A DNA stretch of 64,000 bases from Candidatus Aminicenantes bacterium (lineage in GTDB: Bacteria > Acidobacteriota > Aminicenantia > Aminicenantales > Aminicenantaceae): positions 21,287-85,286 of the forward strand of contig JAFGMO010000012.1 in NCBI GenBank assembly GCA_016927475.1, read 5' to 3'. The notes under the pieces are model-generated. The model was not told where the DNA came from, made no database searches, and saw only the letters and a list, made by a program, of their open reading frames with translations. Positions within the stretch are counted from its first letter, which is position 1. The number at the start of each line of letters is the position of its first letter. The translations under genes and the position numbers were made by a program. Below, piece by piece: positions 7,538-55,590 of this stretch.

Positions 7538-7782
7538 TTTTGCTGTTCACGAGCCAAGCTTGCTGTTGGTCAAATTTTTAAATAACACAGTTGAACCTGT
7601 GTTATTCACGAGTCGAGGTTGCCGAAGATGGGAGGCGTCGATGGACGAAGCTGTGCTTGTTCACCGCGAGTCCATCGCAACGAAGCAGATGCGAAAAGAT
7701 CGGCTCGCCTGGAAGGTAAATTTGGTCGGTTTTAAAATAAAAAAAATAATAAGTTCCCGGCCAAATTTATGAATAACACGGG
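7538..7782 (-). mobile_element. MITE-like repeat, copy B (minus orientation) plus an adjacent TIR fragment and TIR-TIR junction hairpin
   Basis: 7596-7782 aligns almost base-for-base in reverse complement with the 3' half of copy A (40400-40527), including terminal CCTGTGTTATTCACGAG. 7538-7562 is a second TIR fragment. 7581-7606 is AAATAACACAG-ttgaa-CCTGTGTTATT. The element abuts the stop of the 7783 gene. Confidence 0.7.
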
Positions 7783-8928
7783 TCAGATGATCTCAAGCAT
7801 ATCCCTCCCCGGCAGTTTCGGAAAAGGGGCGTGGGGTTCCTGCTGGTACCAGATAGCTACGGAAGACAGATCGTCTTGAAGAGGTAAATATCTTCCGCCC
7901 GACCTCCAGCCCAAAGCCTGAATTGTTACTTTTAGTTCTTTTTCGAAACGGACCGGGTCCATAATATGCCACCGGTAAAGCCCGAAGCGTTGTTGGGACT
8001 GCCACATTCCGTCAGGTTTGATAACCTGTGGCATGCCGGCATAGGGAGTGGTAAATTCACTATATTCCCCGCCCGAGGTAAAACAGTATGAGCCGCAGAA
8101 ATAGTCTTCTGTTCCGGTTCCGCAGATGGTCGGAAAATCTGTATCACCGTCGATGAAAAATTTGATCTCACCTTCTCCCCACCAGCCGGTATTATTTGAG
8201 CCCCAGCACATATAGGTGCCGACGTAATGGCCCCAACCTCGAATGCCGTCGACGATTGTATACACCGACTTATAGGGAAGCGGATTTGCCCGGCGGAATT
8301 GGGCATGGAAATATGCGGCATCCTTTGGAATTTCGGTCAGGGTGTAATTGATTTGGTAATAGAGGGTCAAATTTTTGTCATTCAGGTTTTCCATGGTGAT
8401 CCGGCAGGATTTGCGAAAGGGCATGACCCAGTAGCAGTTGAGGCCGCTTCCGGGATTAACGCAGACAGCCAGGGATGAGACCTGAGCGTATTTGCCCCAG
8501 CCGCAGGCGAAAAAGTCTCCGACGGGAACTTCGACCGAAGGCTCCTCTTCACCGTCCCAGTAGAAGCGGAGGATGGAAAAACGCCAGTTTCCGGAGGGAG
8601 TCATCCAGATCTGTTGGATAGCTCCCGGTCCTTCAATCTCGGCCAGAGTGGTCGTCTTTCCGGATTCGATGTGGATATAAGGGGATACCTTCCAGCCTTG
8701 GCCCAAGTCACGGGCGGCTTCTTGGGCGAGTCCGTCGACGGACTTACCGCCTTTTCCTTTTTTACCTGAAAAGTTTTCCGGGCTGATCGAGCGGGATTTG
8801 GCGTGTGAGAGCTTGTAAAGATTTCCCAGGTTGAGATACAAACCGTTGAATGGTTCTTCCTCTTCCGCGAAAATAAAAAGAGACACTAAACATAAAGAAA
8901 GAAAAATCGCCGTTCGCTTTTTTTTCAT
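7783..8928 (-). CDS. secreted DUF2961 / GH172-like protein
   Basis: Signal peptide MKKKRTAIFLSLCLVSLFIFA and the DUF2961 hallmark TGTEDYFCGS with surrounding conserved Trp/Gly blocks. RBS AAGGAG. Confidence 0.75.
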   Translation of the reverse strand: MKKKRTAIFLSLCLVSLFIFAEEEEPFNGLYLNLGNLYKLSHAKSRSISPENFSGKKGKGGKSVDGLAQEAARDLGQGWKVSPYIHIESGKTTTLAEIEGPGAIQQIWMTPSGNWRFSILRFYWDGEEEPSVEVPVGDFFACGWGKYAQVSSLAVCVNPGSGLNCYWVMPFRKSCRITMENLNDKNLTLYYQINYTLTEIPKDAAYFHAQFRRANPLPYKSVYTIVDGIRGWGHYVGTYMCWGSNNTGWWGEGEIKFFIDGDTDFPTICGTGTEDYFCGSYCFTSGGEYSEFTTPYAGMPQVIKPDGMWQSQQRFGLYRWHIMDPVRFEKELKVTIQALGWRSGGRYLPLQDDLSSVAIWYQQEPHAPFPKLPGRDMLEII

Positions 8929-14995: not shown

Positions 14996-15150
14996 ACCTG
15001 AATAAAGCAGCTGCCCTTGCATTATTCATAAATTTGGCCGACAGCAACTCATAATTTCAATATTGAGTAGCATTTAATGCTGGTTTTCGGCAAAAATGAT
15101 ACTGGAACATTTTCCATGACCATTTTAAGAAGCTGCTGACATTGCTTTTA
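14996..15150 (+). mobile_element. MITE-like repeat, copy D (5' half, degenerate 3' end) preceded by an inverted TIR
   Basis: CCTTGCATTATTCATAAATTTGGCCGACAGC...GGAACATTTTCCATGACCATTTT matches the 5' half of copy A. It is preceded by CCTGAATAAAGCAG, a TIR in opposite orientation, forming a hairpin junction. Confidence 0.6.
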
Positions 15151-23747: not shown

Positions 23748-23954
23748 CCTGCTTTATTCACGAGCCAACAAAGCAGATGCGGTAAGATCGGCGGATTAGG
23801 TTGGGTCGGCGCCTGAAAGGTAAATTTGGCCGGCATTTTCTTAAAAACGGTCGTGGAAAATGTTTCATTATCACTTTTACCGAAAATCACTCTCAAATGA
23901 CACAAAATATTGAAATTATCTGTTGGTGTCGGCCAAACTTATGAATAATGCAGG
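23748..23954 (-). mobile_element. MITE-like repeat, copy C (complete, about 207 bp)
   Basis: Runs from CCTGCTTTATTCACGAGCC to GGCCAAACTTATGAATAATGCAGG. TIRs and internal segments align with copies A and B. Confidence 0.7.
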
Positions 23955-23974
23955 TTAAATAGAAGGCGAAAAAA

Positions 23975-38905: not shown

Positions 38906-40273
38906 ATGGAAAATCAAATTTCTATAAAAAGAGAAGGTTTTGGTACAAAATTCGGAGCTATCGCTGCGGCTGCAGGAGCAGCTGTCGGAATCGGCAACAT
39001 CTGGAATTTCCCTTATCTTACAGGTAAAAATGGTGGTGGAGCTTTCATTGTCATCTACATTTTTTGTGTTCTTTTAATCGGTATTCCGATTATGATTTCC
39101 GAATTTATTTTAGGAAAAAGAGGACAAAAGAACATGGTAGGCTCTTTTAAGACTCTTGCTCCAAACTCAAAATGGCACTGGGTAGGATGGTTCTGTGTTG
39201 TTGCGTGTTTCCTCATACTCGGATTCTACGGTGTTGTTGCAGGATGGAGTTTTGCTCATGTTGCAGAGGCTATTGGCGGCATTTTTAACGGCCTTAATGC
39301 TGAACAGATAGGGGATAAATTTACTAGACACATAACACATCCTATATGGCCTATCTTCTGGCATTTTATTTTTATGGGTGCAACTGCAGGTATCGTTATA
39401 TGCGGCATCAGAAAAGGGATCGAAAAATTCTCAAAGATTTTTATGCCGGTTCTGTTTGTTCTTCTTATGATTCTTGCTATAAGATCGATCACTCTTCAAG
39501 GGGCTTCCGATGGTCTTAAATTTATTTTTAAACCCGATTTTTCTCAGGTTAGTGCTAAAACCATACTTATTGCCTTAGGAGCTGCATTCTTCTCAATTGG
39601 TGTGGGTAACGGTGTTATGGTGACCTTCGGTTCATACCTGAGAAGAGATACAGAACTTGGAAACACAGCGTTTCAGGTTTCCATGACTGATACTATCATT
39701 GCAATTATTGCAGGTGTCGCAATTTTCCCCGCAGTTTTCGCTCTTGGATTTGAACCAACTCAGAGCTCTGGTCTTGCTTTTATTACTGTTCCAGCTGTAT
39801 TTCAGAGTATTCCAGGCGGAGCAGTAGCGCACTACTTTTTTACACTTGTCTTCTTTATCCTGCTTTCAATTGCGGCACTCACATCTTCCGTTGCAACCCT
39901 CGAGGTAGTGGTAGCTTATTTTACAGAAGAGTTTAAGGTAAAGAGAATAGGTGCTGCTTTAGTGATTTCCGGAATAATGTTTCTTATTGGTATCCCCTGT
40001 GCCCTCTCAATAGGTGCTGTACAAATTAACCTTTTTGGAGTTGGATTCTTCGATTTTATCATTTTCCTTGTTGAAGCTATCTTCCTGCCGGTTGGCGGAC
40101 TTATGATAGTTATCTTTGTAGGCTGGCGTCTCAAAAAGAAAGATATTGAAGAAACATTAAGTGCCAATGGAGTAAAAGCTTGGTATCAGGATAGTTGCCT
40201 TTTATTAATAAGATTTATTGTCCCAGTAGTTATTGTTGCAGTTCTTGTTAAAACTTTTATTGATGCTTTCTAA
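38906..40273 (+). CDS. neurotransmitter:sodium symporter (NSS/SNF, SLC6-like) family transporter
   Basis: N-terminal NSS signature (GFGTKFGAIAAAAGAAVGIGNIWNFPYLTGKNGGGAF) and 11-12 TM segments. Confidence 0.85.
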   Translation: MENQISIKREGFGTKFGAIAAAAGAAVGIGNIWNFPYLTGKNGGGAFIVIYIFCVLLIGIPIMISEFILGKRGQKNMVGSFKTLAPNSKWHWVGWFCVVACFLILGFYGVVAGWSFAHVAEAIGGIFNGLNAEQIGDKFTRHITHPIWPIFWHFIFMGATAGIVICGIRKGIEKFSKIFMPVLFVLLMILAIRSITLQGASDGLKFIFKPDFSQVSAKTILIALGAAFFSIGVGNGVMVTFGSYLRRDTELGNTAFQVSMTDTIIAIIAGVAIFPAVFALGFEPTQSSGLAFITVPAVFQSIPGGAVAHYFFTLVFFILLSIAALTSSVATLEVVVAYFTEEFKVKRIGAALVISGIMFLIGIPCALSIGAVQINLFGVGFFDFIIFLVEAIFLPVGGLMIVIFVGWRLKKKDIEETLSANGVKAWYQDSCLLLIRFIVPVVIVAVLVKTFIDAF

Positions 40274-40274
40274 C

Positions 40275-40527
40275 CTGCATTATTCATAAATTTGGCCGAC
40301 ACCGACAGATAATTCCAATATTATGTGTCATTTAATGATGATCTTAGGTAAAATTGATAATGAAACATTTTCCATGACCATTTTCAAGAAAATGTCGGCC
40401 ATATTTACCCTACGGGCGAGCCGCTCTTACCACATCTGCTTCGTTTCGATGGACTCGCGGTGCCAAGCACAACTTCATCCATCGACGCCTTGCATCTGCG
40501 GCAAGCTTGGCTCGTGAATAATACAGG
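40275..40527 (+). mobile_element. MITE-like repeat, copy A (complete, 253 bp)
   Basis: Starts CCTGCATTATTCATAAATTTGGCCGACA 1 nt after the NSS stop and ends CTCGTGAATAATACAGG. TIR consensus CCTG(C/T)ATTATTCA. Confidence 0.75.
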
Positions 40528-40727
40528 CTAAATATTTAGTCTGAAAATAAATAAATCTGAATAGAAAGAATTTTGTAAGAAAATGAAGGGGGTCAAATCT
40601 TTGCTCGACTCATTTACCCATATAATAATGGGAAATGATTTGCAATACGGCAGAAGCAAAATCCAGGAATATGAACATATACCATCAATATAAAAAAATA
40701 GATGAGTCAAGCAAAAACTTGGCCCCT

Positions 40728-44185: not shown

Positions 44186-44881
44186 TCACTTCTTTTCCAT
44201 TATTTTCTTTTTCAATTCTAATAAGTTGGCGTTATTTGGCTCCACTTCTAATCCTTCATTGATGAATTCCAAAGCCAAATCATAATTACCCTGCTCAAAA
44301 AATATTTGAGATAATCGCAAAGATTTGGCTATAGAATGCTTCTTAACATCTTCTGGGGAAACGCCACGTAAAGTTGGTTCATAAGTATCTATACTTTCCT
44401 GTGCCAATGATAGATATTTTTCAAATTTCGTCGGAGATGCAGAATACATGAGGTTATGTGTAGTGTTACCTATCATAAAATCAATAAATAATATTTTTGT
44501 GCCTTTGAAAGTAAATGTTCTCTTCACGGCTGGTTTGCCAGCAAACGCGATCTTTTCTATATTAGTATTGGTCCCGATCTTTTTTTCTATTCCTTTAATT
44601 TCTTCTAACATTTCTTCAAAGCTGTTGTAATCAAGTCCTTTTGCTAGGACTCTTAGTTCAACACCATCAGGGGCAATAAAGGCGACCTTTCCACGAGGGT
44701 CTTGCGGATATTGCTGTATCCGCCACCCATCTGGAGGAACAATTTTGAAATAACCATTAGGATCGGAATATCGACTTTTTGCGAGTGTAGCTGTTTTGCT
44801 CTGCGCATTAGCGCTTCCGATTAGCTGAAAAACAAAAAACAATGAAATAATTGTAACACTTGCGAACTTGAATTTTTTCAT
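44186..44881 (-). CDS. TPR-repeat lipoprotein/secreted protein (integron cassette L2)
   Basis: Signal peptide MKKFKFASVTIISLFFVFQLIGSANAQ and C-terminal TPR-like helices. ATG 44881 with AAGGAG lies directly after the R' box of attC-L1. Low GC (~40%). Confidence 0.55.
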   Translation of the reverse strand: MKKFKFASVTIISLFFVFQLIGSANAQSKTATLAKSRYSDPNGYFKIVPPDGWRIQQYPQDPRGKVAFIAPDGVELRVLAKGLDYNSFEEMLEEIKGIEKKIGTNTNIEKIAFAGKPAVKRTFTFKGTKILFIDFMIGNTTHNLMYSASPTKFEKYLSLAQESIDTYEPTLRGVSPEDVKKHSIAKSLRLSQIFFEQGNYDLALEFINEGLEVEPNNANLLELKKKIMEKK

Positions 44882-44895
44882 GTTTATCTCCTTTT

Positions 44896-44981
44896 CACAT
44901 AACACGGGCGTTGAGCTGCGAGGGCCGCGCCTACTCTGAGACGGGGCGCGGACCTCGTCTGCTCCAACGCCTTGTTAGCCG
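44896..44981 (-). other. attC-like recombination site (attC-L1), minus-strand polarity
   Basis: Minus strand reads GGCTAACAAGGCGTTGGAGC...CCGCGCC/GGCGCGG centre...GCTCAACGCCCGTGTTATGT. L'' GGCGTTGGAGC pairs with L' GCTCAACGCC leaving one extrahelical G. The 5' arm resembles the aadA attC (CTAACAA..CGTT..AAGC). R' is GTTATGT. Confidence 0.6.
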
Positions 44982-44990
44982 ACAGCGCAC

Positions 44991-45848
44991 CTACTCGAAG
45001 CCCTGAGGCTCGTACTGCGGGGTCCAGGGCGCAACGCCCTCAACCGCACGTAGAGTGACTCGAAACCGCTGCGGGTAACTGGGATCCCTGCGTGACTTCG
45101 GAATCTCGACGATCGCTACTCCGCGGGACAGCATCGTCTGAAACGTGTAGGCGAGGGTGTTTTCCACGAAGGCTAGCACGTGTCGGCACATGGCAGCCAC
45201 CCACTGGGACACCGGCACGCCATCAACAGGCGGCTCGATCATCGACACTCCCCCCTCAGGCGTAGGCGGGTACTTGACGTCCGGGAGGACCCAGCCCTCA
45301 TGCTCGAGAGCATTGCGACGATCAATGAGACCTTGGGACCAGTCTTGTCGGGCAAGCCGGAAGTACTCGACCAGAGGTTCGTGGCCGGCGGAAGCCAGTA
45401 CAGTCATGCGGCGCTCGAAGTTCGCATCATTAGCGAAGAAGCCCCCTATGTCCAAGCCGAGATGCGCCGTCACCTTTTGCAGCGACTTTGCAGCCCGGAC
45501 CGCGCTATTCAGGAAGCGAGATAGGAGGTCACGGAGGTCATGGTGAATAGCTTCGTGGATCTCGATAGCGTTTCGTTGGCGGCCTACGATCTCGCCTGAT
45601 AGCAGCTTCGCGCGGTGACCCTCTACAAGGGTGTGCAGGGTTTTTGCAGCCTTTCGCATCGCGAACATCTCGTTCAACACAGCCTCGTACAACTCGTCGA
45701 ATGCCAGGCGGCGTGCCTCGCGCTCTCGGTGGGAGATATCGAGAGCGTTGAGGTAATGATCGCGGAGTTCCATCATGCCGCTCATCAAGCGTGCGATGAA
45801 GGGTTTGGCAGTGCCCTCGTCAAGCGCCTTCTGGATCGTCCACTTCAT
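44991..45848 (-). CDS. hypothetical protein (integron cassette L1), high GC
   Basis: 285-aa ORF with no family recognised; there is an Rx5H stretch (RQRNAIEIHEAIHH) reminiscent of HEPN. ATG 45848 lies 5 nt from the GTTAGCC core that terminates the left 140-bp repeat. Confidence 0.4.
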   Translation of the reverse strand: MKWTIQKALDEGTAKPFIARLMSGMMELRDHYLNALDISHREREARRLAFDELYEAVLNEMFAMRKAAKTLHTLVEGHRAKLLSGEIVGRQRNAIEIHEAIHHDLRDLLSRFLNSAVRAAKSLQKVTAHLGLDIGGFFANDANFERRMTVLASAGHEPLVEYFRLARQDWSQGLIDRRNALEHEGWVLPDVKYPPTPEGGVSMIEPPVDGVPVSQWVAAMCRHVLAFVENTLAYTFQTMLSRGVAIVEIPKSRRDPSYPQRFRVTLRAVEGVAPWTPQYEPQGFE

Positions 45849-45855
45849 GCTCGGC

Positions 45856-45996
45856 TAACTATTAATATACAGCATGCTGTATTTGACACAAATTTCCCTC
45901 AATTAACGTCGTATATTATGTGATATCATCGGATATCCCCGCAAAATTGCTGTCTTAGTTTATAATTATCCTGCTTATATTGCAAGTCGTATATTC
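45856..45996. repeat. left copy of a 140-bp inverted repeat pair (candidate attI/Pc module)
   Basis: Reverse-complement of 46643-46782 with about 8 mismatches. Its outer end is GTTA (GTTAGCC on the minus strand). It contains the 18-bp palindrome TATACAGCATGCTGTATA and an outward TATATT. Confidence 0.85.
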
Positions 45997-46028
45997 GATG
46001 GACCTGTTATCCTCTTGAGAGGAATCAA

Positions 46029-46513
46029 TTGAACAATCAACACAAAAATCTTGAGGAGTTTGAAGATTTTATCAAGCGTTTCCATCTTGTTCCCCTAGAG
46101 AAAGCCCGATTTTATGTTTATTGGGTAGAACGATTTATGAAATATTATAAATATAGAACTTCCAAAACGGTGGGAAATATCCTAATGCCAACAAGGAATG
46201 GCCCTGGCAGTGGGTATTTCCCTCGAAAAGCCTTGTGGTGCATCCTAAGAGCGGAAAGCTCTTGCGTCATCATATCCAACCAAGCTTGCTTCAGAGAAAG
46301 ATCAAAAAAGCTGTAAGAAATTCTGATATTTCCAAACCGGCAAGCTGTCATACGCTTCGGCACAGTTTCGCCACTCATCTGCTGGAGGCAGGACATAATA
46401 TCCGAACGATTCAGGAACTCATGGGACATAAAAACGTCAATACCACGATGATATACACTCATGTTGTTCGTAAGAGCTATTCGGATGTTTCCAGCCCTTT
46501 GGACAAACTATAG
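46029..46513 (+). pseudogene. intI: integron integrase (IntI-type tyrosine recombinase) pseudogene with internal deletion
   Basis: The N-terminal segment (EKARFYVYWVERFMKYY) matches the IntI SAM-like N-domain (EQAYVHWVRAFIRFH). A C-terminal segment in another frame ([17 protein letters not shown]...[72 protein letters not shown]...VSSPLDKL) aligns with IntI1 residues ~230-320, including the catalytic Tyr. About 160 central residues, including the catalytic R/K box and the IntI-specific insert, are missing. Confidence 0.7.
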
Positions 46514-46642
46514 AGAAATGATGGCGTGCAGCTAGAGAAAAAAGGCTTCTATCAATTTCTCATCCTAGGATTTTTGTGACAAATTGAAAAGAGTATTTTT
46601 TAGAAATTATTTAGAAAACCTTGAAGGATATTAAAGGAGTTG

Positions 46643-46782
46643 GATATACGACTTGCAATATAAGCAGGATAATTATAAGCTAAGACTGCAATTTTGTGGG
46701 GATATTCGATGATATCACATAATATACGACGTTAATCGAGGGAAATTTGTGTCAAATACGGCATGCTGTATATTAATAGTTA
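46643..46782. repeat. right copy of the 140-bp inverted repeat pair (candidate duplicated attI/Pc module)
   Basis: See the left copy. The outer end is GTTATGT at 46779-46785, where homology with the left copy stops. Confidence 0.85.
46746..46774 (+). promoter_or_regulatory. outward-facing promoter-like element in the right repeat (TTTGTG-N17-TATATT); the mirror copy on the minus strand at 45864-45892 faces cassette L1
   Basis: TATATT at 46769-74 is 34 nt upstream of the DUF4145 ATG, with RBS AGGAATGGAGG. The mirror TATATT at 45869-64 lies 15 nt upstream of ATG 45848. Confidence 0.35.
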
Positions 46783-46808
46783 TGTGAGAGAGGAATGGAG
46801 GCGATACT

Positions 46809-47411
46809 ATGGATATCAATGTGAAGCATTCATGGAAGGCCATCGTAGGCCTATCCTCGCGGGGGTATACGTGCGGATACTGCAATCGCCCCCTCGCGTC
46901 CGAGAAGGGATGGCATTCGAACAATTCCGGTTTCATCTATGTCTGCCATCACTGTACGCGCCCCACCTTCTTCGACTTTCACGGTGAGCAGATCCCGGGT
47001 GTTATGCACGGGAATCCGGTCGGTGACATAACCGACAAGTCAGTTTCCGCCCTTTACGATGAAGCTCGCAGCACAACTCAGGCGAACGCCTACACTGCCA
47101 CGGTTCTCTGCTGCCGGAAGCTCTTGATGCACGTTGCCGTTTCAAAGGGTGCCAAGCTTGGAGAGAGCTTCGCGTTCTACGTCACCTACCTTGCAGAGAA
47201 AAACTTCGTTCCTCCCGACGCAATGGGGTGGATCGATCATATCCGCAAGAAGGGGAACGAAGCGAATCATGAGATCACCATCATGAAAAAGGACGATGCA
47301 GAAGAACTGCTGTCCTTTACGGAGATGCTGCTGAGGATTATCTACGAGTTCCCTGCGATGGTCGCGAAGAAGTACCAGCAAGGACAACAAGGGAAGGGGA
47401 AGACCACATAA
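46809..47411 (+). CDS. zinc-ribbon + DUF4145 domain protein (integron cassette R1)
   Basis: N-terminal CxxC...CxxC (CGYCNRP...CHHCTRP). The C-terminal region matches DUF4145 features (VLCCRKLLMHVA...HIRKKGNEANHE). Confidence 0.55.
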   Translation: MDINVKHSWKAIVGLSSRGYTCGYCNRPLASEKGWHSNNSGFIYVCHHCTRPTFFDFHGEQIPGVMHGNPVGDITDKSVSALYDEARSTTQANAYTATVLCCRKLLMHVAVSKGAKLGESFAFYVTYLAEKNFVPPDAMGWIDHIRKKGNEANHEITIMKKDDAEELLSFTEMLLRIIYEFPAMVAKKYQQGQQGKGKTT

Positions 47412-47427
47412 CAATCGAATCGAACGC

Positions 47428-47496
47428 GACTTAGTGTTAACCGCGCCGCTTCGCTCTGCGGCTAACACTAAGCGGTTCATTCGAGGCGTTATGTCC
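47428..47496 (+). other. candidate short or degenerate attC-like site (attC-R1)
   Basis: Imperfect palindrome CTTAGTGTTAACC-GCGCCGCTTCGCTCTGCG-GCTAACACTAAG (11/12 stem), whose centre GCCGCTTCGC..GCGGCT(T)AAC resembles the aadA attC centre. It is followed by GTTATGT (47489-95), the same R' as attC-L1 and L2. The full fold is unclear. Confidence 0.3.
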
Positions 47497-47531
47497 ATAA
47501 TTGTCATGAATGAATCGAATTATGAGGTTTG

Positions 47532-50500
47532 ATGGAGCAAAAGCGCAAAATAGATAAAGTCAGGGCGTCACGGGACGGCCATGAGTTTCATGAGGCCTGG
47601 ACGGCACGTAAGGCGACTCAGTTGCTATGGCCCGATGCCGAGTTGACTGCTATCGCCGTTGAAGGGCTTTCACCTTCTGATCAGGCTGGGGCGCCCGCGG
47701 CTACGATCGAAGTCGCTGACTTGACGTTCTATTATAAAGGTCCCCCGAATTTCAAGGATTCCGCCCGAACAACAATTGCCCAATTCAAATACTCCATTGC
47801 TGATCATAACAAGGACTTCCGTACCTCTCACGCAAAGAAGACAGTAAAAAAGTTTGGCGTGACCTATCGCTCATATAAACGAAAGTACGGTGCCAAAGCG
47901 GTTGATAATAAACTCGAATTTCAGCTCGTCACGAACCAGCCAATCAGCGAATCATTGCTTCAGGCCATTGAGGCAACGGCAACGGGATCGAGGATTAGCG
48001 GTGATGTTAAGGCGCAGGCAGAGCAGTTAAAGACGGCTTCCGGCTTGTCGGGAAAACCACTGGCTGCATTTGCGAGAAAGATGAAAATTATTGGCCGCTC
48101 TGGGAGCTTGCCGCAAACAAAGGGTGAGCTTGCCAGCATGCTCGTCGACTGGTCTGCCACGAGTGATCCGATTGCTTCCGCCCGGCTCGGGAAGCTTAGA
48201 GAACTTGTACGTGACAAGGCTGGTTATGCCGGTACTAACCGAAATCTGATCAGACGCACTGACGTGCTGGCCGCTCTTAAGATCGGTGACCCGAAAGACT
48301 TACTTCCCTGTGAAGCGGCTCTCGTCGATGTCGGCAAGGTACTGGAGCGGGAGCAGCTCCGCGAGGTCATGAACCGTATCGGAAGTACGTCAACGCCGCT
48401 TCTTATTCATGCGACGGGTGGCGTGGGCAAGACAGTCTTTATGGATTCGCTCGCCTCGAAGATCGCCTCAGACCACGAGATTGTTTTCTTCGATTGTTTT
48501 GGAGGCGGTGCTTACCGCTCTCCAGAAGACGCGCGACACTTACCCAAGAAGGGGCTCATTCATATTGCGAATACACTGGCATTTCGCGGCCTCTGCGATC
48601 CGATGCTCCCGGACAGTCCTGATGTGCACACTTTACTCAGCACGTTCCGCCGCCGCCTTACGCAGTGCCTGAACACCATCTCACGCATGATGCCAGGACG
48701 CAAGCTGGCGATTTTTATTGATGCCATCGACAATGCAGCCTTTGCTGCTGGCCAGGCAAGCGAAGACTGTTTTCCCATTAAGCTGCTGGAGACCCTCGAT
48801 ACGGAACCGATTGATGGCGTAAACCTTATCGTGTCCTGCCGTACAGAACGCAAGCCGAAAACCTATGCCAAGCTCGATGAATTCGAACTGTACCCTTTTA
48901 CCAAGGATGAAACAGCCACGTTTTTGCACGCGCGACTGAAGAGCGTCACAACCATAGAAATAAACGTTGCGCAAGCCCGGTCAGGCGGCAATCCGCGTGT
49001 GCTGGATTACCTGGTCAAGGCAGGTCGCGGCCTTCTTGATCCATCCGAGATCAACAAAGACATCGAGCTGGATGATCTGATTCAACAAAGAATCACGGAT
49101 GCGCTCTCTTTGGCCACAAAGCAGGGTTATAAGGAGAAGGACCTCAGTGCCTTTCTTGCAGGGCTCGCGGTGCTTCCTCCGCCGGTGCCTAAAGATGAGT
49201 ATGCCGCCGCTCATGGTATAGAGCTCGCCGCCATTGAGAGCTTTGCTTCGGACCTTAGCCCTCTACTAGAGCGCACCAATCACGGGCTCATGTTCCGTGA
49301 TGAGCCAACGGAAACACTGATCCACGAGCAATACGCGACATCACGTGATGCGCTTGAGCGTGTCGCATCCAATCTCCTTGCTCGCCAGGATGCGTCGGTA
49401 TATGCAGCCCGTGCGCTTCCGCGTCTGCTACACGAACTCGATGATAATGAGCGGCTGTTCGCACTTGCTTTCGATGATCGTATTCCTGCCTCAATTACCA
49501 GCACAGTTGGCAAGCGCAATATTCAATATGCCCGGCTTAAGGCAGCCACTTTGCACGCGGCTCTCAAGGTTGACTACAACAGCCTTGTACGGCTTCTCGT
49601 CGAGCTATCAACCTTAGCTGAGGTTGATCAGCGTGGAGCCAATTATCTACTGAAACATCCTGATCTTGTTGTTGCTGCCGAAGATGTTGACGCCCGGCGG
49701 CGACTATTTGAAATAAGAACGGCTTGGCCAGGAACACGACATGCGCGTCTTGCTATCGTCAATGTTTTATCGGGTGATCCGACAGAGGCGACCCGTCATG
49801 CACATGCAAATGAAGAGTGGATAAAGCATTACCGGCGCACAGAGCGAAACGATTTTGAGCGTGAACCAATTCCTGATCAGGCCGACATCGCTGCCACAAG
49901 TTTCTTTCTGATCTCGGAAGATCGCACAGAAAATGCGGCCGGCTACCTCACAGGTTGGCGGGACTGGTATGCCTTTGAAGTTTCTCAGCTCGTCCTCGGA
50001 TATGCGCATCTTGCGAGCTTGTTAGGAACTCAGCCCGCTCAACGGACTGAACAATTCATTGATGCGCTCTCCAGTATCGGTCCGATTGCGGCTGCTTTGT
50101 CTTTTCAAGAGCTGGCGAACTCTAAATGCAAGCCGCTTTGCGTCAAACTCGCTGCTCTCTGCAAGAAGGAGACAAAGCTTTACTTGCCGCAAAAAAGTTA
50201 CTCGCGCCCAAAAAACTACGAACTCGAAGACGGTCTAAGGAAGTCGGCCGCCATCGCGCTCTCATTGGGCCTCATCACTGAGGCACAATCTATTTCACTA
50301 AGAGCACGGCATGATCGGCCCGGTATCTGGGCATACCGTGACGCGTTCAACCACACAGAAGTATTCGCTAATATATTCCGAGTTGCCCTGCTTTCTGCTG
50401 CAAAGAAGCGCGCTATTCACGAGAAGGAACTGCTGCCAAAAGAGCTCGTATCGGTCTGCGCGCGCATTCCAAAGACCATTTCTGGAAAAACCTTCCGAGA

Positions 50501-53500
50501 AAAGGCCAAGGAAGAGCTCTCTAAGCTTCCGCGCAAGCCGCGTTACGAAGATGGGCAAACCAAGAACGTGGCGGCTAATGCCATTAGCTATGATGAGCAG
50601 CAGACGGCAGAGCGCTTTCTTGGCATCCGCCTGGAGCCGCTGCTTACTCTCACTGAGGCACTGTCGGCTGCACTCGCAGCATCGGCGCGGACCATTGATA
50701 AGCGCTTTGTCGAGCTTGTGGAAGCCTGGGAGCAGGCGCGAAAAAATCGCGATCACTACCGGGTTGAGGATATCGATCCCTTCTTTCAATTCTTGGGTCT
50801 CGACACTGTTCTCTTCATATTGTGGTCCCGTAGCGAGCTGAAGCCACAATCCATCGAGCGCATGCTGACAGCCGTACATGCCCACATGAGCAATGCCAGT
50901 GATTTGATTCGTATTGTCGCGATTCTATCGCAGCGAACCCCGCTGCACTCGATTGCGGGCGAGCAGGCCGTAAAGGCGCGCGAGATGATTAAGAAAGAGG
51001 ATGAAGTTACCTATCGGGCGTCTCTCTATGGTGCTCTTGGCCGGGCAATCCTTCCTGCCAGCCTTGATGAGGCTGCCTCCTATTTCCGGGATGGTCTGGA
51101 GCAGATGGATGCCATTGGTTCGGGTGATTACCAGTTCACGAATGAACTGCTCTTGTTCGCATCGGAGATGAAAGGTGACGAACTGGAAGAACGTGACTTT
51201 CACACGCTGAGCAATATCTGCGAACTCAATATGGGGGACGAGCCCGAGAAATTTTTCTGGGGTGCGTACGGTCGCGGCATGGCAAAGGCAGCCGGGATGC
51301 GTGGCCTATCCAAGCTCAGTCGCTGGGATGACCGCAACAGGATAGCTCTGGACAACACACTTCTCACCTATCTTACGGGGCTGCTCGAAGCGGGAAAGAT
51401 CGATCCAAAGGGCGCGCTTTGTCTAAACCGCCTCGCCAATCCGGTTGAATATTTCTATGCCGGGACGAAGGAGTTTGCCAAAGCGTTGCGCGCCCAGGCA
51501 GGGCCGGATGCTGAAGTGATTACAGAGCTGATAACACAGTTCGAGGATGACAATCCGACGATAGCGAGTGACGAGACTGTCGAGACACTTTATGCGCTGG
51601 CTGACGAAGCGCTGGGTGCATCGCATGATATAACGAAGCACCTCAAAGCCGCGCGGGACAGATACGAGACCGCAAGGCAAGGACGCAATACTGCGTATGG
51701 TAGTAGCAGCGACTTCGATCCGAAGATGCATAGAGAAGCTGCCAAACGTGACAATGCAAACCGGGAGGCACTCGCACGTATAGCTGAAGCGACGGACCCG
51801 ACCGACGAGGCATCGCTTGTAAAGGCCATCGACGAATTCAATGCACTTGGGAACATGTATGACCTAAAAGGTGGCTTCTTTTCCTCGCTGCGAGCCAAAG
51901 TGCCCTTTGCTGCGCGCGGCCAGTATGTGCGCAATGTTGCCAGTCTGGAGCATCTGTTCTTCTATTGGAAATTCGCAGAACTGAAAGATGCAAAGGAAGC
52001 CTGGGGCGAATCATCCGTAGCGCTTGCTGGTGTTTATAGGAGCCTGGCACAGCCGCTAATTCTTGCCCATGCCGATGATTTGGTCAATGACGGTCGGTTC
52101 TCGGGTTCGAGCATCAAGGAAATATCTGAGTTTACGGGTGTGTCTATGGCCGAACTCGTTCTTGAGGTGATAAAGGTCTTTTCACGTCCTGATAGCACGG
52201 CCGGTGGTTCGGTATGGCTTGCGCTTGCCAATTTCATATGTCCAGCAGCGGATGAAGGGCAGGGGCAACTTGCCCTGAAGCGCCTACTGTCTGGCGACTC
52301 GGCACGGATTGCCGACAACGTAACAGACGGTCCATGGAAAGCAGGCTGCTACCCCGCGGATGTCTTCGCCGAAATTGCTGCTGGGCTAATATGGCGTGTC
52401 CTCGGTTCGCCCCATGCGACTGACAGATGGCGCGCGGCTCACTGCATACGCCGATTTGCAAAGTTCGGGCGCTGGGACATTGTTGACACGGTTGTTGCCG
52501 CCTTTGATACGAAGACTGCTGAACCGTTTCAGGCACCAGAGCTTGTGTTCTATTACCTGCATGCACGGTTATGGCTCCTGATAACCCTGGCGCGGGCCGC
52601 GATCGATCATCCCGATCAGGTGGCGCGTTACAAGGATCTACTCTTGGCTGTCATCATGGAAAAAGATGAGCCGCATGTGCTTAAGCGCCACTTTGCCGCC
52701 AAAGCGCTTCTTGCCTGTATAGAACGCAGCAAACTGGTGCTTGACCCAGCCACGCTCAAGATTGTGCGTAATGCCGACAATTCCCCGAATCCGCGTTTAC
52801 GAAAGAAGATCCGCAACGGCGGCGGCTTCTATCAGGGCCGTCCGAAATCAGTATCCAAGCCTTCCTTTCGTTTTCATCTGGAGTATGACTTTAATAGGCA
52901 TGACGTTGATAACCTCGGCCGTGTCTTCGGCAAGGGCTGCTGGGAAGTTGATGACATGATGTCAAGCATCGTACAAAAGATTGATCCGTCAATGACGCAC
53001 ATGTATGAGGATGGTGACCGCGAGTACCGCGGGCAAAATTCTCATGGAATAACGACTCGCTTTCACGGCTATGGGCAACAGCTCGGCTGGCATGCACTAT
53101 TCATTGCTGCAGGCAAGCTGCTTGCCGCCAATCCTGTAACCAACGACTGGTGGTACGAGGACGACCCGTGGGGAGAGTGGCTTGGCCGCTACGTGCTTAC
53201 GCGAAAGGATGGATTGTGGCTATCCGATGGAACAGACAGGACTCCAGATGACGCATCTGTGAGGCTGCTTGAAACAAAGAAGAAGGGGCTTACGATAACC
53301 GGCGATCAGAAGAAGATTATGGGGCTTGCCGGCATAGATATTGAGAAAGGCATTGGTGAAGAACTGATTGTTCAGGGCAGATGGTATTCATCCGATGGTG
53401 TTGAAATCGGATTATCCTCTGCGCTTGTTCCACCCAAAAAGGCCGAGCAGTTTGCAAGAAAGCTCATTCGCGAAAAGCCGATACTGGCGTGGGTGCCTGC

Positions 53501-54005
53501 TTTCGAGGACGGCGAAGACGATGAAGAATATCTTCATAGTGATAAGAAGGGGTACTCACCTTGGATTGTCTGTCCATCCGGAGAAACACGTTTGGATGAA
53601 CATGATCCATATGGCGTTTCGGTTGCCAATCTTCGGCCGCGCCTTGCGCAAGATTATTCAGAGTTCTGTAAGCTGAAACAGCAAGATGAGTTCGGACGTT
53701 TCTGGAATAACAATCGTGGGACGCTTTCACTTCTAGCCCAAGCCTGGGGGCGCGATGAAACCAATCGAGAAGACGGCCCTCATCCGGGACTGCGGCTTCT
53801 CTGCAAGTCAAGTGTACTTAAGAATTTATTAATGAAGTATGACAGGGAACTGCTATTGCTCTTCAAACTTCAGCGTTATGAGAAAGAAAGTTATCGAAGC
53901 AGCGGACATTTTTTGCATTCTATCGGTGTAGTGAGGATTGATAAGTTGCTCAGTTTGGAGTACGTTAAGGGTCGCGTAAACTACTTACACAAGTCGGAGT
54001 GGTAG
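47532..54005 (+). CDS. giant STAND/NACHT-like P-loop NTPase (2157 aa): N-terminal unknown domain + NTPase + about 1500-aa helical repeat region; candidate defence protein (integron cassette R2)
   Basis: Walker A LLIHATGGVGKTVF (nt ~48409-48450), Walker B LAIFIDAIDNA (nt ~48707-48739), sensor-like LIVSCRTE and GxP-like ARSGGNPRVLDYL. The C-terminus is long and alpha-helical. GC ~57%. ATG 47532 has GAGG upstream. Confidence 0.6.
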   Translation: MEQKRKIDKVRASRDGHEFHEAWTARKATQLLWPDAELTAIAVEGLSPSDQAGAPAATIEVADLTFYYKGPPNFKDSARTTIAQFKYSIADHNKDFRTSHAKKTVKKFGVTYRSYKRKYGAKAVDNKLEFQLVTNQPISESLLQAIEATATGSRISGDVKAQAEQLKTASGLSGKPLAAFARKMKIIGRSGSLPQTKGELASMLVDWSATSDPIASARLGKLRELVRDKAGYAGTNRNLIRRTDVLAALKIGDPKDLLPCEAALVDVGKVLEREQLREVMNRIGSTSTPLLIHATGGVGKTVFMDSLASKIASDHEIVFFDCFGGGAYRSPEDARHLPKKGLIHIANTLAFRGLCDPMLPDSPDVHTLLSTFRRRLTQCLNTISRMMPGRKLAIFIDAIDNAAFAAGQASEDCFPIKLLETLDTEPIDGVNLIVSCRTERKPKTYAKLDEFELYPFTKDETATFLHARLKSVTTIEINVAQARSGGNPRVLDYLVKAGRGLLDPSEINKDIELDDLIQQRITDALSLATKQGYKEKDLSAFLAGLAVLPPPVPKDEYAAAHGIELAAIESFASDLSPLLERTNHGLMFRDEPTETLIHEQYATSRDALERVASNLLARQDASVYAARALPRLLHELDDNERLFALAFDDRIPASITSTVGKRNIQYARLKAATLHAALKVDYNSLVRLLVELSTLAEVDQRGANYLLKHPDLVVAAEDVDARRRLFEIRTAWPGTRHARLAIVNVLSGDPTEATRHAHANEEWIKHYRRTERNDFEREPIPDQADIAATSFFLISEDRTENAAGYLTGWRDWYAFEVSQLVLGYAHLASLLGTQPAQRTEQFIDALSSIGPIAAALSFQELANSKCKPLCVKLAALCKKETKLYLPQKSYSRPKNYELEDGLRKSAAIALSLGLITEAQSISLRARHDRPGIWAYRDAFNHTEVFANIFRVALLSAAKKRAIHEKELLPKELVSVCARIPKTISGKTFREKAKEELSKLPRKPRYEDGQTKNVAANAISYDEQQTAERFLGIRLEPLLTLTEALSAALAASARTIDKRFVELVEAWEQARKNRDHYRVEDIDPFFQFLGLDTVLFILWSRSELKPQSIERMLTAVHAHMSNASDLIRIVAILSQRTPLHSIAGEQAVKAREMIKKEDEVTYRASLYGALGRAILPASLDEAASYFRDGLEQMDAIGSGDYQFTNELLLFASEMKGDELEERDFHTLSNICELNMGDEPEKFFWGAYGRGMAKAAGMRGLSKLSRWDDRNRIALDNTLLTYLTGLLEAGKIDPKGALCLNRLANPVEYFYAGTKEFAKALRAQAGPDAEVITELITQFEDDNPTIASDETVETLYALADEALGASHDITKHLKAARDRYETARQGRNTAYGSSSDFDPKMHREAAKRDNANREALARIAEATDPTDEASLVKAIDEFNALGNMYDLKGGFFSSLRAKVPFAARGQYVRNVASLEHLFFYWKFAELKDAKEAWGESSVALAGVYRSLAQPLILAHADDLVNDGRFSGSSIKEISEFTGVSMAELVLEVIKVFSRPDSTAGGSVWLALANFICPAADEGQGQLALKRLLSGDSARIADNVTDGPWKAGCYPADVFAEIAAGLIWRVLGSPHATDRWRAAHCIRRFAKFGRWDIVDTVVAAFDTKTAEPFQAPELVFYYLHARLWLLITLARAAIDHPDQVARYKDLLLAVIMEKDEPHVLKRHFAAKALLACIERSKLVLDPATLKIVRNADNSPNPRLRKKIRNGGGFYQGRPKSVSKPSFRFHLEYDFNRHDVDNLGRVFGKGCWEVDDMMSSIVQKIDPSMTHMYEDGDREYRGQNSHGITTRFHGYGQQLGWHALFIAAGKLLAANPVTNDWWYEDDPWGEWLGRYVLTRKDGLWLSDGTDRTPDDASVRLLETKKKGLTITGDQKKIMGLAGIDIEKGIGEELIVQGRWYSSDGVEIGLSSALVPPKKAEQFARKLIREKPILAWVPAFEDGEDDEEYLHSDKKGYSPWIVCPSGETRLDEHDPYGVSVANLRPRLAQDYSEFCKLKQQDEFGRFWNNNRGTLSLLAQAWGRDETNREDGPHPGLRLLCKSSVLKNLLMKYDRELLLLFKLQRYEKESYRSSGHFLHSIGVVRIDKLLSLEYVKGRVNYLHKSEW

Positions 54006-54089
54006 GCATCTAAAGTCCACATCTGACCGATAAACTCGCGGAACGAAACGGGAAATTGTTGAAAATCCCAAGCACACGATGCTTGATTA

Positions 54090-54150
54090 GAACATAACCA
54101 ACATTTTGGAGCCGACCGAAAAACCTGGCGGCTCAAAATGAACGTTAGAT
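54090..54150 (+). other. attC-like recombination site (attC-R2), about 60 bp
   Basis: ACATAAC-CAACATTTTGGAGCC-GACCGAAAAACCTGGC-GGCTCAAAATGAAC-GTTAGAT. L'' has an extra G relative to L' (extrahelical), and R' GTTAGAT is identical to the aadA1 R'. It is followed by AAGGAG and ATG 54166. Confidence 0.6.
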
Positions 54151-54165
54151 GAAAGGAGATTTGTC

Positions 54166-54801
54166 ATGAAAAAGGCTTATCTATTATTGGTTCTATCCAG
54201 CAAGAAAGCTATTCTTTACTTTTTCGCTCTCTCCACTATTTCCTTAATAATCAATCCGCTCTATTCCTTGTCAGCCGAAGGTCCTATGGCAGATATTTTA
54301 GATATAGACGGTGCGTCCATATCGGCGGAATTTATCCAGGCTAATTGGGTGGCACCAGGCGACTGGAGGCGTGGTCTCATGCCAGCAGAGGCCCCTTCTA
54401 AATTAACCTCATATTTTGAGATAAAAATAACGGTCAAAGAGGGCAGAGTTATAACCTATGAAACAGTCAATATCCCTTTTAATGATATTAGATCCATTGA
54501 GGTTGATTGGTACAGAATTGACAAAAAAAGAAATACGATAACATTCAATATGCGCAATGGAAAAGCGATCATCTATGTTAAGGAATATGACAATGCAAGC
54601 CATGGAACGTACATAAAGAAAGACCCAAATGGGAATATTTTGTCCAAAGTACCTGCTCCAGATTCACGTCTTACAATCGGAGAATACCAGGGAGTTCCAT
54701 TTGAGTTTGTTGGATTTAAAGGCAGGGCAATAATGAAATCGGGAAAAATCGGTGAATTCTCTATTCCTTACCGGGACGTTAAAAAGTTAGTATTTAAATA
54801 G
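54166..54801 (+). CDS. secreted hypothetical protein (integron cassette R3), low GC
   Basis: Signal peptide; no family recognised. It lies between attC-R2 and attC-R3. Confidence 0.4.
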   Translation: MKKAYLLLVLSSKKAILYFFALSTISLIINPLYSLSAEGPMADILDIDGASISAEFIQANWVAPGDWRRGLMPAEAPSKLTSYFEIKITVKEGRVITYETVNIPFNDIRSIEVDWYRIDKKRNTITFNMRNGKAIIYVKEYDNASHGTYIKKDPNGNILSKVPAPDSRLTIGEYQGVPFEFVGFKGRAIMKSGKIGEFSIPYRDVKKLVFK

Positions 54802-54804
54802 TAT

Positions 54805-54870
54805 TCATCTAACAACGGCATTAAGGCCGACGGTAAAAAAGCCGCCGCGCCTTATGCCGCAGCGTTATGC
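54805..54870 (+). other. attC-like recombination site (attC-R3)
   Basis: ATCTAACAACGGCATTAAGGCCGAC...GCCTTATGCCGCAGCGTTATGC. R'' ATCTAAC is a perfect RYYYAAC and the 5' arm is close to the aadA attC (GTCTAACAATTCGTTCAAGCCGAC). L'' carries an extra A. R' GTTATGC overlaps the ParE stop on the opposite strand. Confidence 0.6.
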
Positions 54871-55161
54871 GGAATCAGACGGCTCAACAATCTCCTGTGC
54901 TCCGTGCCAGACAGCGACAATCCAAATCGTCTTCTTCTCAACGCGATAAAAGAAACGATATGGATTGATCATAATTTCGCGATGCGCCAATTCCGGGAAC
55001 TCAGGAATCACTCGACCAGACTCCGGAAATCTTTCTAGACGTCGGAGAACCCGTTCGGACCTCTCACGAAAACGCTGTGCTGCGGAAGGCTTATCTCTAC
55101 GGATGTATACAAGTGCCTCAAGAAATTGCAGACGAGCCGAGGGCGTGAACCGAACCCTCAC
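54865..55161 (-). CDS. parE: type II toxin, RelE/ParE family (cassette R4)
   Basis: RelE/ParE fold signature (PSARLQFLEALVYIRRD...RFFYRVEKKTIWIVAVWHGAQ). Confidence 0.85.
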   Translation of the reverse strand: MRVRFTPSARLQFLEALVYIRRDKPSAAQRFRERSERVLRRLERFPESGRVIPEFPELAHREIMINPYRFFYRVEKKTIWIVAVWHGAQEIVEPSDSA

Positions 55162-55439
55162 GCCTCACCCTCCCGAAGAAGGGCATCCGCCTCTCGAAGC
55201 ACGCTATCTAGCGAATATCCTTTGCCCTTTGCGATCTCCCTTTCCCCCAACGCGAGCAGGCGCAGTAACTCCCGCTCATGCTGTGAACGTTCGTAGGCTT
55301 CGAGGTTCAACAGAACAGCAGTCGCCCGCCCTCTCTGGGTTATAACAAGGGGTTCCTCGGATTTTTGAAGCTCTTTCAGTACAGACGCTGCGTCCTGCCG
55401 CAGGTCTGTAATAGGAATTATTTTTGGAACTTTCGCCAT
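55158..55439 (-). CDS. phd: type II antitoxin, Phd/YefM family
   Basis: Phd/YefM N-terminal motif (IPITDLRQDAASVLKELQKSEEPLVITQRGRATAVLL). 4-nt overlap with parE. Confidence 0.85.
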   Translation of the reverse strand: MAKVPKIIPITDLRQDAASVLKELQKSEEPLVITQRGRATAVLLNLEAYERSQHERELLRLLALGEREIAKGKGYSLDSVLREADALLREGEA

Positions 55440-55513
55440 ATGACACCTCCAATGGTACGCTTAATAATACCGTATGGCGTATCATAAATCAACGTATTAT
55501 CTCCGCATAACGC

Positions 55514-55590
55514 GTGCATAACCGGTAAAAACGTTTGGCGCGGCCTTTGTACCAAAGGGCGTGACGAGCGGTTTTGTCCGTGGTTATGCG
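55514..55590 (+). other. attC-like recombination site (attC-R4), probable distal end of the right cassette array
   Basis: GCATAAC-CGGTAAAAACGTTTGG-CGCGGCCTTTGTACCAAAGGGCG-...CGGTTTTGTCCGTG-GTTATGC. R''/R' pair as TAAC/GTTA, with a central CCTTTG/CAAAGG stem and bulged arms. Confidence 0.45.

Follow-up and report, generated by a model that had tools for sequence, protein, structure and literature searches.

Two single-gene cassettes of a decayed integron in Candidatus Aminicenantes: a RAZR-type protein and a candidate HEPN-like effector

What is encoded by two open reading frames (ORFs) that point away from each other in the genome of a Candidatus Aminicenantes bacterium, and by what element are they carried? 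The two frames, here named ORF285 and ORF200 after the length of their products in amino acids (aa), are located in a 64,000 nucleotide (nt) stretch of contig JAFGMO010000012.1 (assembly GCA_016927475.1, positions 21,287 to 85,286), which in its full length is referred to as the window. The host is represented by a metagenome-assembled genome whose recorded proteins include both products in identical form. A preliminary description made from the sequence regarded both as cassette cargo of unknown function, and its positions and strands for the two ORFs agree with those listed in Table 1. Overall, it appears rather probable that the locus holds two independent cassettes of which ORF200 encodes a RAZR-type protein and ORF285 a probable HEPN-type ribonuclease (RNase).

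ORF285 and ORF200 are independent single-gene cassettes, each next to a copy of attI, in a chromosomal integron that is decayed and has two arms. This is concluded from the folds of their attC sites, from the point at which the two arms diverge, from the complementarity between R″ and the cassette starts and from the remnant of the integrase gene intI. A repeat search of the window detected two inverted arms of 156 nt each that were 91% complementary, and each arm is a copy of attI. The alignment of the arms showed approximately 95% identity up to ...AATAGTTA and split exactly after GTTA, continuing as GTTAGCC on the left and as GTTATGT on the right. Read from the two sequences, this exact divergence at GTTA is the signature of the attI × attC crossover point. 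The cassette starts are of the TTRRRY type and each is complementary to the R″ of its own attC, GTTAGCC to GGCTAAC for ORF285 and GTTATGTG to CACATAAC for ORF200. Both attC sites display the boxes R″-L″...L′-R′. Folding of the attC bottom strands gave −30.4 kcal/mol (z −6.4) for the ORF285 cassette and −27.8 kcal/mol (z −6.5) for the ORF200 cassette, and for neither site did any of 200 shuffled sequences fold equally well.

The two inverted attI copies flank the deleted integrase gene, and the cassette arrays extend outward on both sides of this platform (45839-46799). In the integrase remnant the C-terminal 92 aa match TIGR02249 (E 2.3e-40), covering profile positions 225-315 only, and the N-terminal piece had no family match in Pfam or NCBIfam. 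The remnant has retained an IntI-type motif, which we take to be the IntI-specific insertion. Since the gene has lost its central part, the integrase is inactive. The GC content was 59.7% in ORF285 and 53.1% in ORF200, compared to a window mean of 46% and to 37% in the attI/intI platform between the ORFs. The earlier characterization of ORF285 as a high-GC gene is therefore correct, and the attI junctions together with the separate attC sites bear out the proposal that the two ORFs are the first cassettes on their respective arms.

Judged by its sequence, ORF200 adds a distant member to an established family of anti-phage RNases, RAZR, formerly PD-T7-4. The combination of a CxxC..CxxC zinc ribbon and a DUF4145 domain, already recognized in the preliminary description, was evident in the family at large. 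The four cysteines C22, C25, C46 and C49 were invariant across 49 relatives, as were N150 and H154, and R146 was present in at least 90% of them. DUF4145 (PF13643) matched aa 85-172 of ORF200 with E 5.8e-10 and 39.5 bits, relative to a gathering score of 23.1. The PADLOC model of PD-T7-4 (PDLC04109) matched ORF200 at E 7e-7 with 26.9 bits over profile positions 41-179 of 211, and it matched all 49 relatives as well, with a best E of 6e-12. More than 1350 homologues of ORF200 were detected; their lengths are all approximately 190-210 aa, each contains PF13643 and they belong to many phyla. Homologues were also present in temperate phages and plasmids, and a zinc ribbon-DUF4145 protein from an Stx phage is a more remote relative of PD-T7-4 than ORF200.

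The AlphaFold2 (AF2) model of ORF200 had a predicted local distance difference test score (pLDDT) of 82.6 and displayed beta strands at aa 33-55. The top match of this model in a Foldseek search of the PDB was 9y9c, the RAZR:Gp77 complex, with E 7e-3 and a probability of 0.97 over 190 columns, at a template modelling (TM) score of only 0.38-0.42. The HepT HEPN toxins ranked after 9y9c. Searches of the PDB sequences with ORF200 or with the profile of its family did not reach RAZR, which was reached by the fold search alone.

In Escherichia coli, RAZR is encoded by a single gene and combines a Cys4 zinc ribbon with a DUF4145 domain that constitutes a divergent HEPN RNase, and R146 and H154 of RAZR-Ec are required for phage defence; activation takes place when the protein forms a 24-mer around phage proteins that assemble into rings, upon which it cleaves single-stranded RNA non-specifically (Zhang et al., Nature 2026, PMC13017515). 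ORF200 is likewise a single gene for approximately 200 aa with an N-terminal Cys4 zinc ribbon, a conserved linker and a DUF4145/HEPN domain, and its R146 and H154 have residue numbers identical to those of RAZR. It differs from RAZR in belonging to a host of the phylum Aminicenantes and in the divergence of the zinc ribbon, which is the part that sets specificity. Because this architecture is that of RAZR (PMC13017515) and the PD-T7-4 model matches, ORF200 is not a protein of unknown function; the defence reading given to it earlier was right but understated, and the label of unknown function was wrong.

Two circumstances weigh against this assignment. The relationship to PD-T7-4 is distant, with a match of 26.9 bits, 18% identity to the RAZR chain and a TM score of about 0.4, and the ring-forming phage proteins that trigger RAZR cannot be assumed for the phages of Aminicenantes. 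The membership of ORF200 in the family and the RNase chemistry predicted for R146 and H154 are nevertheless very likely the same as in RAZR, and for a ring-type phage trigger, proposed by analogy, the chances appear evenly balanced. Following this analogy, the N-terminal Cys4 zinc ribbon would be the domain for sensing and specificity, and the DUF4145 domain would be a divergent HEPN RNase with R146 and H154 as catalytic residues. The protein would stay idle until the assembly of a phage protein triggers its oligomerisation through the zinc ribbon, and the activated form would cut RNA non-specifically and thereby abort the infection.

An alternative function is suggested by the annotation of the phage homologues. 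The family phrog_1305, labelled DNA binding protein, matched ORF200 with E 2e-20, and the phage records carry the same label, by which ORF200 might be a DNA-binding regulator and not an RNase. This label is an automatic annotation, whereas the conservation of R146, N150 and H154 and the experiments on RAZR (PMC13017515) favour an RNase, and a regulator of this kind is highly unlikely.

A second alternative is raised by the position of ORF200 next to a large gene that matches Avs3a. The two genes share a strand and lie next to each other with 117 nt between them, and ORF200 could accordingly have been the small subunit, inactive alone, of an AVAST type 3 system made up of both genes. A full attC is however located between the two genes, which are therefore separate cassettes. 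Furthermore, ORF200 had no match to Avs3b in PADLOC at E up to 1 and matches PD-T7-4 instead, an Avs gene was found beside none of the three ORF200 homologues examined, and RAZR acts as a single gene (PMC13017515). The subunit reading was rejected and is very unlikely. The neighbours of the three homologues all differed (AbiTii, FRG, phage genes), and since they vary, the ORF200 type of gene is considered to stand alone.

In one of the homologous loci (L001, 5885-9598; L003) a same-strand run was observed that is composed of a truncated tyrosine recombinase, an Rce1-like (CPBP) gene, the RAZR-like gene and AbiTii. This run is possibly a small defence islet. The recombinase in it is a generic tyrosine recombinase and not an integron integrase.

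Defence genes as integron cassettes have been described before. PD-T7-4 ranks with the defence systems found most often in sedentary chromosomal integrons, and cassettes consisting of HEPN only (Esos) as well as a DUF6602 cassette (Damona) have been reported from integrons (Darracq et al., bioRxiv 10.1101/2024.07.02.601686). The array investigated here shares with these the single-gene, streamlined defence genes carried as cassettes. That study concerned mainly Vibrio, whereas the present array belongs to Aminicenantes and has a dead integrase and a duplicated, inverted attI. It also differs from the sedentary integron cases in harbouring a 6.66 kb Avs3a-like cassette and in that ORF285 is outside all the defence models tested. 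With ORF200, the newly characterized RAZR family reaches into an uncultured phylum that branches deeply, and as one more PD-T7-4 in an integron the gene is a useful but expected addition.

The identity of ORF285 was less readily approached. The preliminary description could name no family for it, and none was found here: ORF285 had no match in Pfam, PADLOC, NCBIfam, PHROGs or the PDB sequences, and a profile search of the PDB was likewise empty. A word-indexed search recovered 19 relatives. By exhaustive profile search the family was found to comprise at least 679 clusters (50% identity) at E≤0.001, with 201 of these at E≤1e-30, and it is almost entirely metagenomic. Among 149 listed relatives, 88 were short forms, and most of the other 61 were proteins of approximately 640 aa in which the ORF285-like module is C-terminal. 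The N-terminal domain of the long forms was NucC/PD_DExK-like (E 5e-11 and 1.2e-8), and DUF6602 was detected in 14 of 118 members scanned. The matches thus include NucC and CRISPR-associated PD-(D/E)xK nucleases as well as DUF6602. This domain is wholly absent from ORF285. Within the long forms, conservation is low in the N-terminal region and high in the ORF285-like module.

The conservation of motifs in ORF285 was counted over 167 family members, with totals per alignment column of 157-166. R178 was an arginine in 165 of 166 sequences and H183 a histidine in 165 of 166, and the residue following R178 was N in 110/166 (66%) and D in 10/166. R167 and E229 were invariant, R20 (99%), W170, R254 and R261 were near-invariant, and R29 and R65 were also conserved. 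The HEPN-like idea put forward for ORF285 in the preliminary description had been based on the stretch RNAIEIH (Rx5H). This stretch is not conserved, as R92 was an arginine in 18/157 and H98 a histidine in 15/166 of the sequences, which is no more than chance, and it lies in a beta-hairpin of the model; the conserved Rx4H motif is R178-x4-H183 instead. The HEPN-like idea itself is still the best reading.

In the HEPN superfamily an Rx4-6H motif is located at the end of core helix 3 with a polar residue following the arginine (Anantharaman et al. 2013, PMC3710099). The AF2 model of ORF285 had a pLDDT of 87.7 and a predicted TM score of 0.86, and in this model the R178-H183 motif closes the helix 157-183, after which come a loop and the helix 213-239. 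The order of elements in the model (40-84, 102-129, insert 135-153, 157-183, 213-239) fits that of HEPN, an up-down bundle of four helices in which an insert separates helices 2 and 3, and Foldseek had no match below E 0.2. Because the near-invariant R178 and H183, with N after R, are positioned at the end of a helix as described for HEPN (PMC3710099), ORF285 could be a divergent, metal-independent RNase effector of the HEPN type that uses R178 and H183, a reading which we hold tentatively, at slightly below even chances.

In comparison with the HepT/MNT-associated HEPN toxins (SO_3166, PDB 5yep) and the HEPN superfamily, ORF285 shares the Rx4H motif, in which N follows R and which closes a core helix, and, in its predicted model, a helical bundle with an insert before the motif helix. 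It differs from them in being twice the size, with additional helices at the N-terminus, beta elements and an extension at the C-terminus. It also has no MNT or other antitoxin gene, no significant similarity in sequence or profile and no conserved acid in helix 2.

Scanning of the 118 family members with Pfam returned DUF6602 and DUF1281_C (2 members, best E 0.12) as recurring families. The only other families found in at least two members were HEPN_LA2681 and HEPN_Apea, and HEPN_Swt1 was found in one. Pfam contains approximately 30 families of the HEPN type, and given this number we estimate that the recurrence of HEPN families among the members exceeds chance. One short alignment of the ORF285 family to DUF4145, which was not significant, places N179, H183 and E184 on N150, H154 and E155.

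Several results count against ORF285 as a HEPN RNase. The HEPN matches of single members were individually non-significant (HEPN_LA2681 0.0046, HEPN_Swt1 0.016, HEPN_Apea 0.042 and 0.049). A comparison of the family with DUF4145 by hhalign gave a probability below 1% and no link to a HEPN profile, and searching Pfam with consensus sequences of the family yielded coiled-coil noise only. The acidic residue of helix 2 (Ex3[KR]) is not conserved in the family, where D107 is acidic in 33%; helix 2 is conserved at K121 and Q124, and the acidic positions conserved in the family are D51 and E229.

Finally, the module of the long forms could regulate the N-terminal nuclease. On this account ORF285 would be non-enzymatic, a helical sensor or regulatory module that controls the NucC-like nuclease in the long forms and that acts in its free form as a regulator, adaptor or decoy. 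The long forms already contain a nuclease-like domain, which might itself be the effector, the fold searches returned generic helical-bundle matches only, a profile link to HEPN was lacking, and the many conserved arginines (R20, R29, R65, R167, R254, R261) would also fit the binding of a ligand or nucleotide. Yet a variable N-terminal region joined to a conserved module is what is usually seen when a variable sensor is coupled to a conserved effector. The 88 free-standing short forms among the 149 listed relatives have, moreover, no constant partner gene, and R-N-x3-H, which is near-invariant and terminates a helix, has the character of a catalytic signature. We therefore regard a non-enzymatic ORF285 as rather unlikely.

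Somewhat less improbable is that the module represents an undescribed and widespread family of conflict effectors with a fold variant of its own. Its candidate active site would then be formed by R167, R178, H183 and E229 together with DEGTxxPFxARL, and it would occur alone or fused to the NucC-like nuclease. ORF285 would in that case be the streamlined integron version of a two-domain defence protein and would constitute a single-gene system, anti-phage or toxin, that is new. The peptide DEGTxxPFxARL was observed as a conserved N-terminal element at aa 10-21 of ORF285 (45785-45821), in which R20 was present in 99% of the members and the AlphaFold pLDDT was below 50. This peptide may serve as an interface or contribute to an active site that takes shape only in an oligomer.

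A pore-forming function was considered as well, since the top Foldseek matches of ORF285 included the alpha-helical toxins Hbl-B (2nrj), AhlC, MakE and ClyA, and the long helices of the model end on one side in a beta-hairpin. All of these matches had E >0.2, a probability ≤0.35 and a TM score ≤0.28. The hairpin (GEIVGRQRNAIEIH) is charged and not hydrophobic, ORF285 has no signal peptide, and the residues conserved in it (R, H, E and K) are not features of membrane insertion. On these grounds a ClyA/Hbl-type toxin was discarded as extremely unlikely.

ORF285 is the free-standing form of a conserved module of approximately 280 aa that in many relatives makes up the C-terminal half of proteins of approximately 640 aa with an N-terminal NucC-like/DUF6602 PD-(D/E)xK domain. 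If ORF285 is an RNase of the HEPN type, it would act as a toxic effector of abortive infection that is held inactive post-translationally. As the cassette has room for one gene only, ORF285 would be kept inactive without a genetic antitoxin. The analysis shows how the cassettes are built, how the families are related, which motifs are conserved and which folds are predicted; RNase activity, the mechanism of activation and a role in the defence of this organism are what we infer for ORF285 as for ORF200.

The relatives of ORF285 were found in varied genomic neighbourhoods: beside an integrase and DUF4062, in a TnsB/TniB-type transposon with a UvrD helicase, with Abi_C and PDDEXK, and with HEPN_Swt1. 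Toxin-antitoxin genes and transposases were further neighbours, and the free-standing relatives had no constant partner gene. The ad hoc scanner detected no convincing attC beside the ORF285 homologues, the lone candidate being a hairpin 3′ of the gene in locus L014, and the family is for this reason considered not to be integron-specific. No relatives of ORF285 were found in viral contigs or in phage and plasmid records. Scans of species-representative genomes with the family patterns and with back-translated NALEHEGW did not yield any true relative. Pattern matches in Brevibacterium, on which no family search was made, were treated as chance matches and not as relatives of ORF285; they end in RENALEHEGWALIRV, which resembles the C-termini of DUF559/Vsr-like endonucleases.

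Neither ORF285 nor ORF200 could be assigned to a housekeeping family and both have homologues in mobile or defence-type contexts, so that neither outcome named in the preliminary description as refuting it was observed. ORF285 points to a sizeable unannotated family that is encountered in mobile and defence settings and that has a clear candidate for its active site. It is thereby a concrete and inexpensive target for a possible new defence effector of the HEPN type, one that would not be surprising in kind.

Table 1. Coordinates in the window of the two cassette genes, their motifs, the integron platform and the adjoining Avs3a-like gene.
Feature	Position	Strand	Remarks
ORF285, 285 aa	44991-45848	-	59.7% GC; unannotated family, candidate HEPN-like effector
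ORF285, codons of R178-N-A-L-E-H183	45300-45317	-	conserved Rx4H motif
ORF285, codons of RNAIEIH (aa 92-98)	45555-45575	-	motif named in the preliminary description; not conserved
ORF200, 200 aa	46809-47411	+	RAZR/PD-T7-4-like zinc ribbon-HEPN (DUF4145)
ORF200, Cys4 zinc ribbon	46872-46955	+	C22, C25, C46, C49
ORF200, codons of R146-KKGNEAN-H154	47244-47270	+	predicted HEPN catalytic pair
Left arm of inverted repeat, attI copy	45839-45994		cassette junction GTTAGCC at 45855-45861 (minus)
Right arm of inverted repeat, second attI copy	46644-46799		cassette junction GTTATGT at 46779-46785
Integron integrase remnant	46029-46513	+	internal deletion and frame break
attC closing the ORF285 cassette	44897-44980	-	R″ GGCTAAC, R′ GTTATGT; read from the sequence and by ad hoc attC scanner
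attC closing the ORF200 cassette	47406-47494	+	R″ ACATAAC, R′ GTTATGT; read from the sequence and by ad hoc attC scanner
Avs3a-like STAND NTPase, 2158 aa	47529-54005	+	PADLOC Avs3a E 1e-202; context of ORF200, not partner

Outward of ORF200, the right array contains, in this order, the Avs3a-like cassette, a cassette for a probably secreted protein of 211 aa and a cassette with an inverted pair of the Phd type. The Avs3a-like gene occupies a single cassette of approximately 6.66 kb (47488-54150), an unusually large size for an integron cassette. The cassette opens with GTTATGT, and an attC of its own, with the R″ ACATAAC, is located at 54092-54150. The gene scored 777 bits with NCBIfam NF041816, which is under the cut-off of 2800, and the match was confined to the N-terminal 812 aa. 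Because only these 812 aa match the Avs3a models, the sensor part is considered divergent. With this very large Avs-type cassette among its genes, the locus shows that integrons outside Proteobacteria store defence genes too.

The fourth cassette of the right arm (54865-55589) holds an inverted pair of the toxin-antitoxin type and ends at the attC 55516-55589. An antitoxin of the Phd family is encoded at 55158-55439 (TIGR01552, E 4e-9), and its partner gene, an ORF of 98 aa at 54865-55161, had no family match. In the left array, ORF285 is followed by a low-GC cassette (44186-44905) with a TPR lipoprotein-like gene. This cassette and that of the 211-aa protein (54166-54801) had a GC content of 36-39%, and the 211-aa protein has a hydrophobic N-terminus. 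Neither of the two proteins had a match in NCBIfam, and in Pfam the TPR lipoprotein-like protein had weak TPR matches only. Elsewhere in the window, an intergenic repeat of approximately 70-150 nt was present in several copies and in both orientations (7591-7787, 15018-15126, 23810-23962 and 40266-40532).

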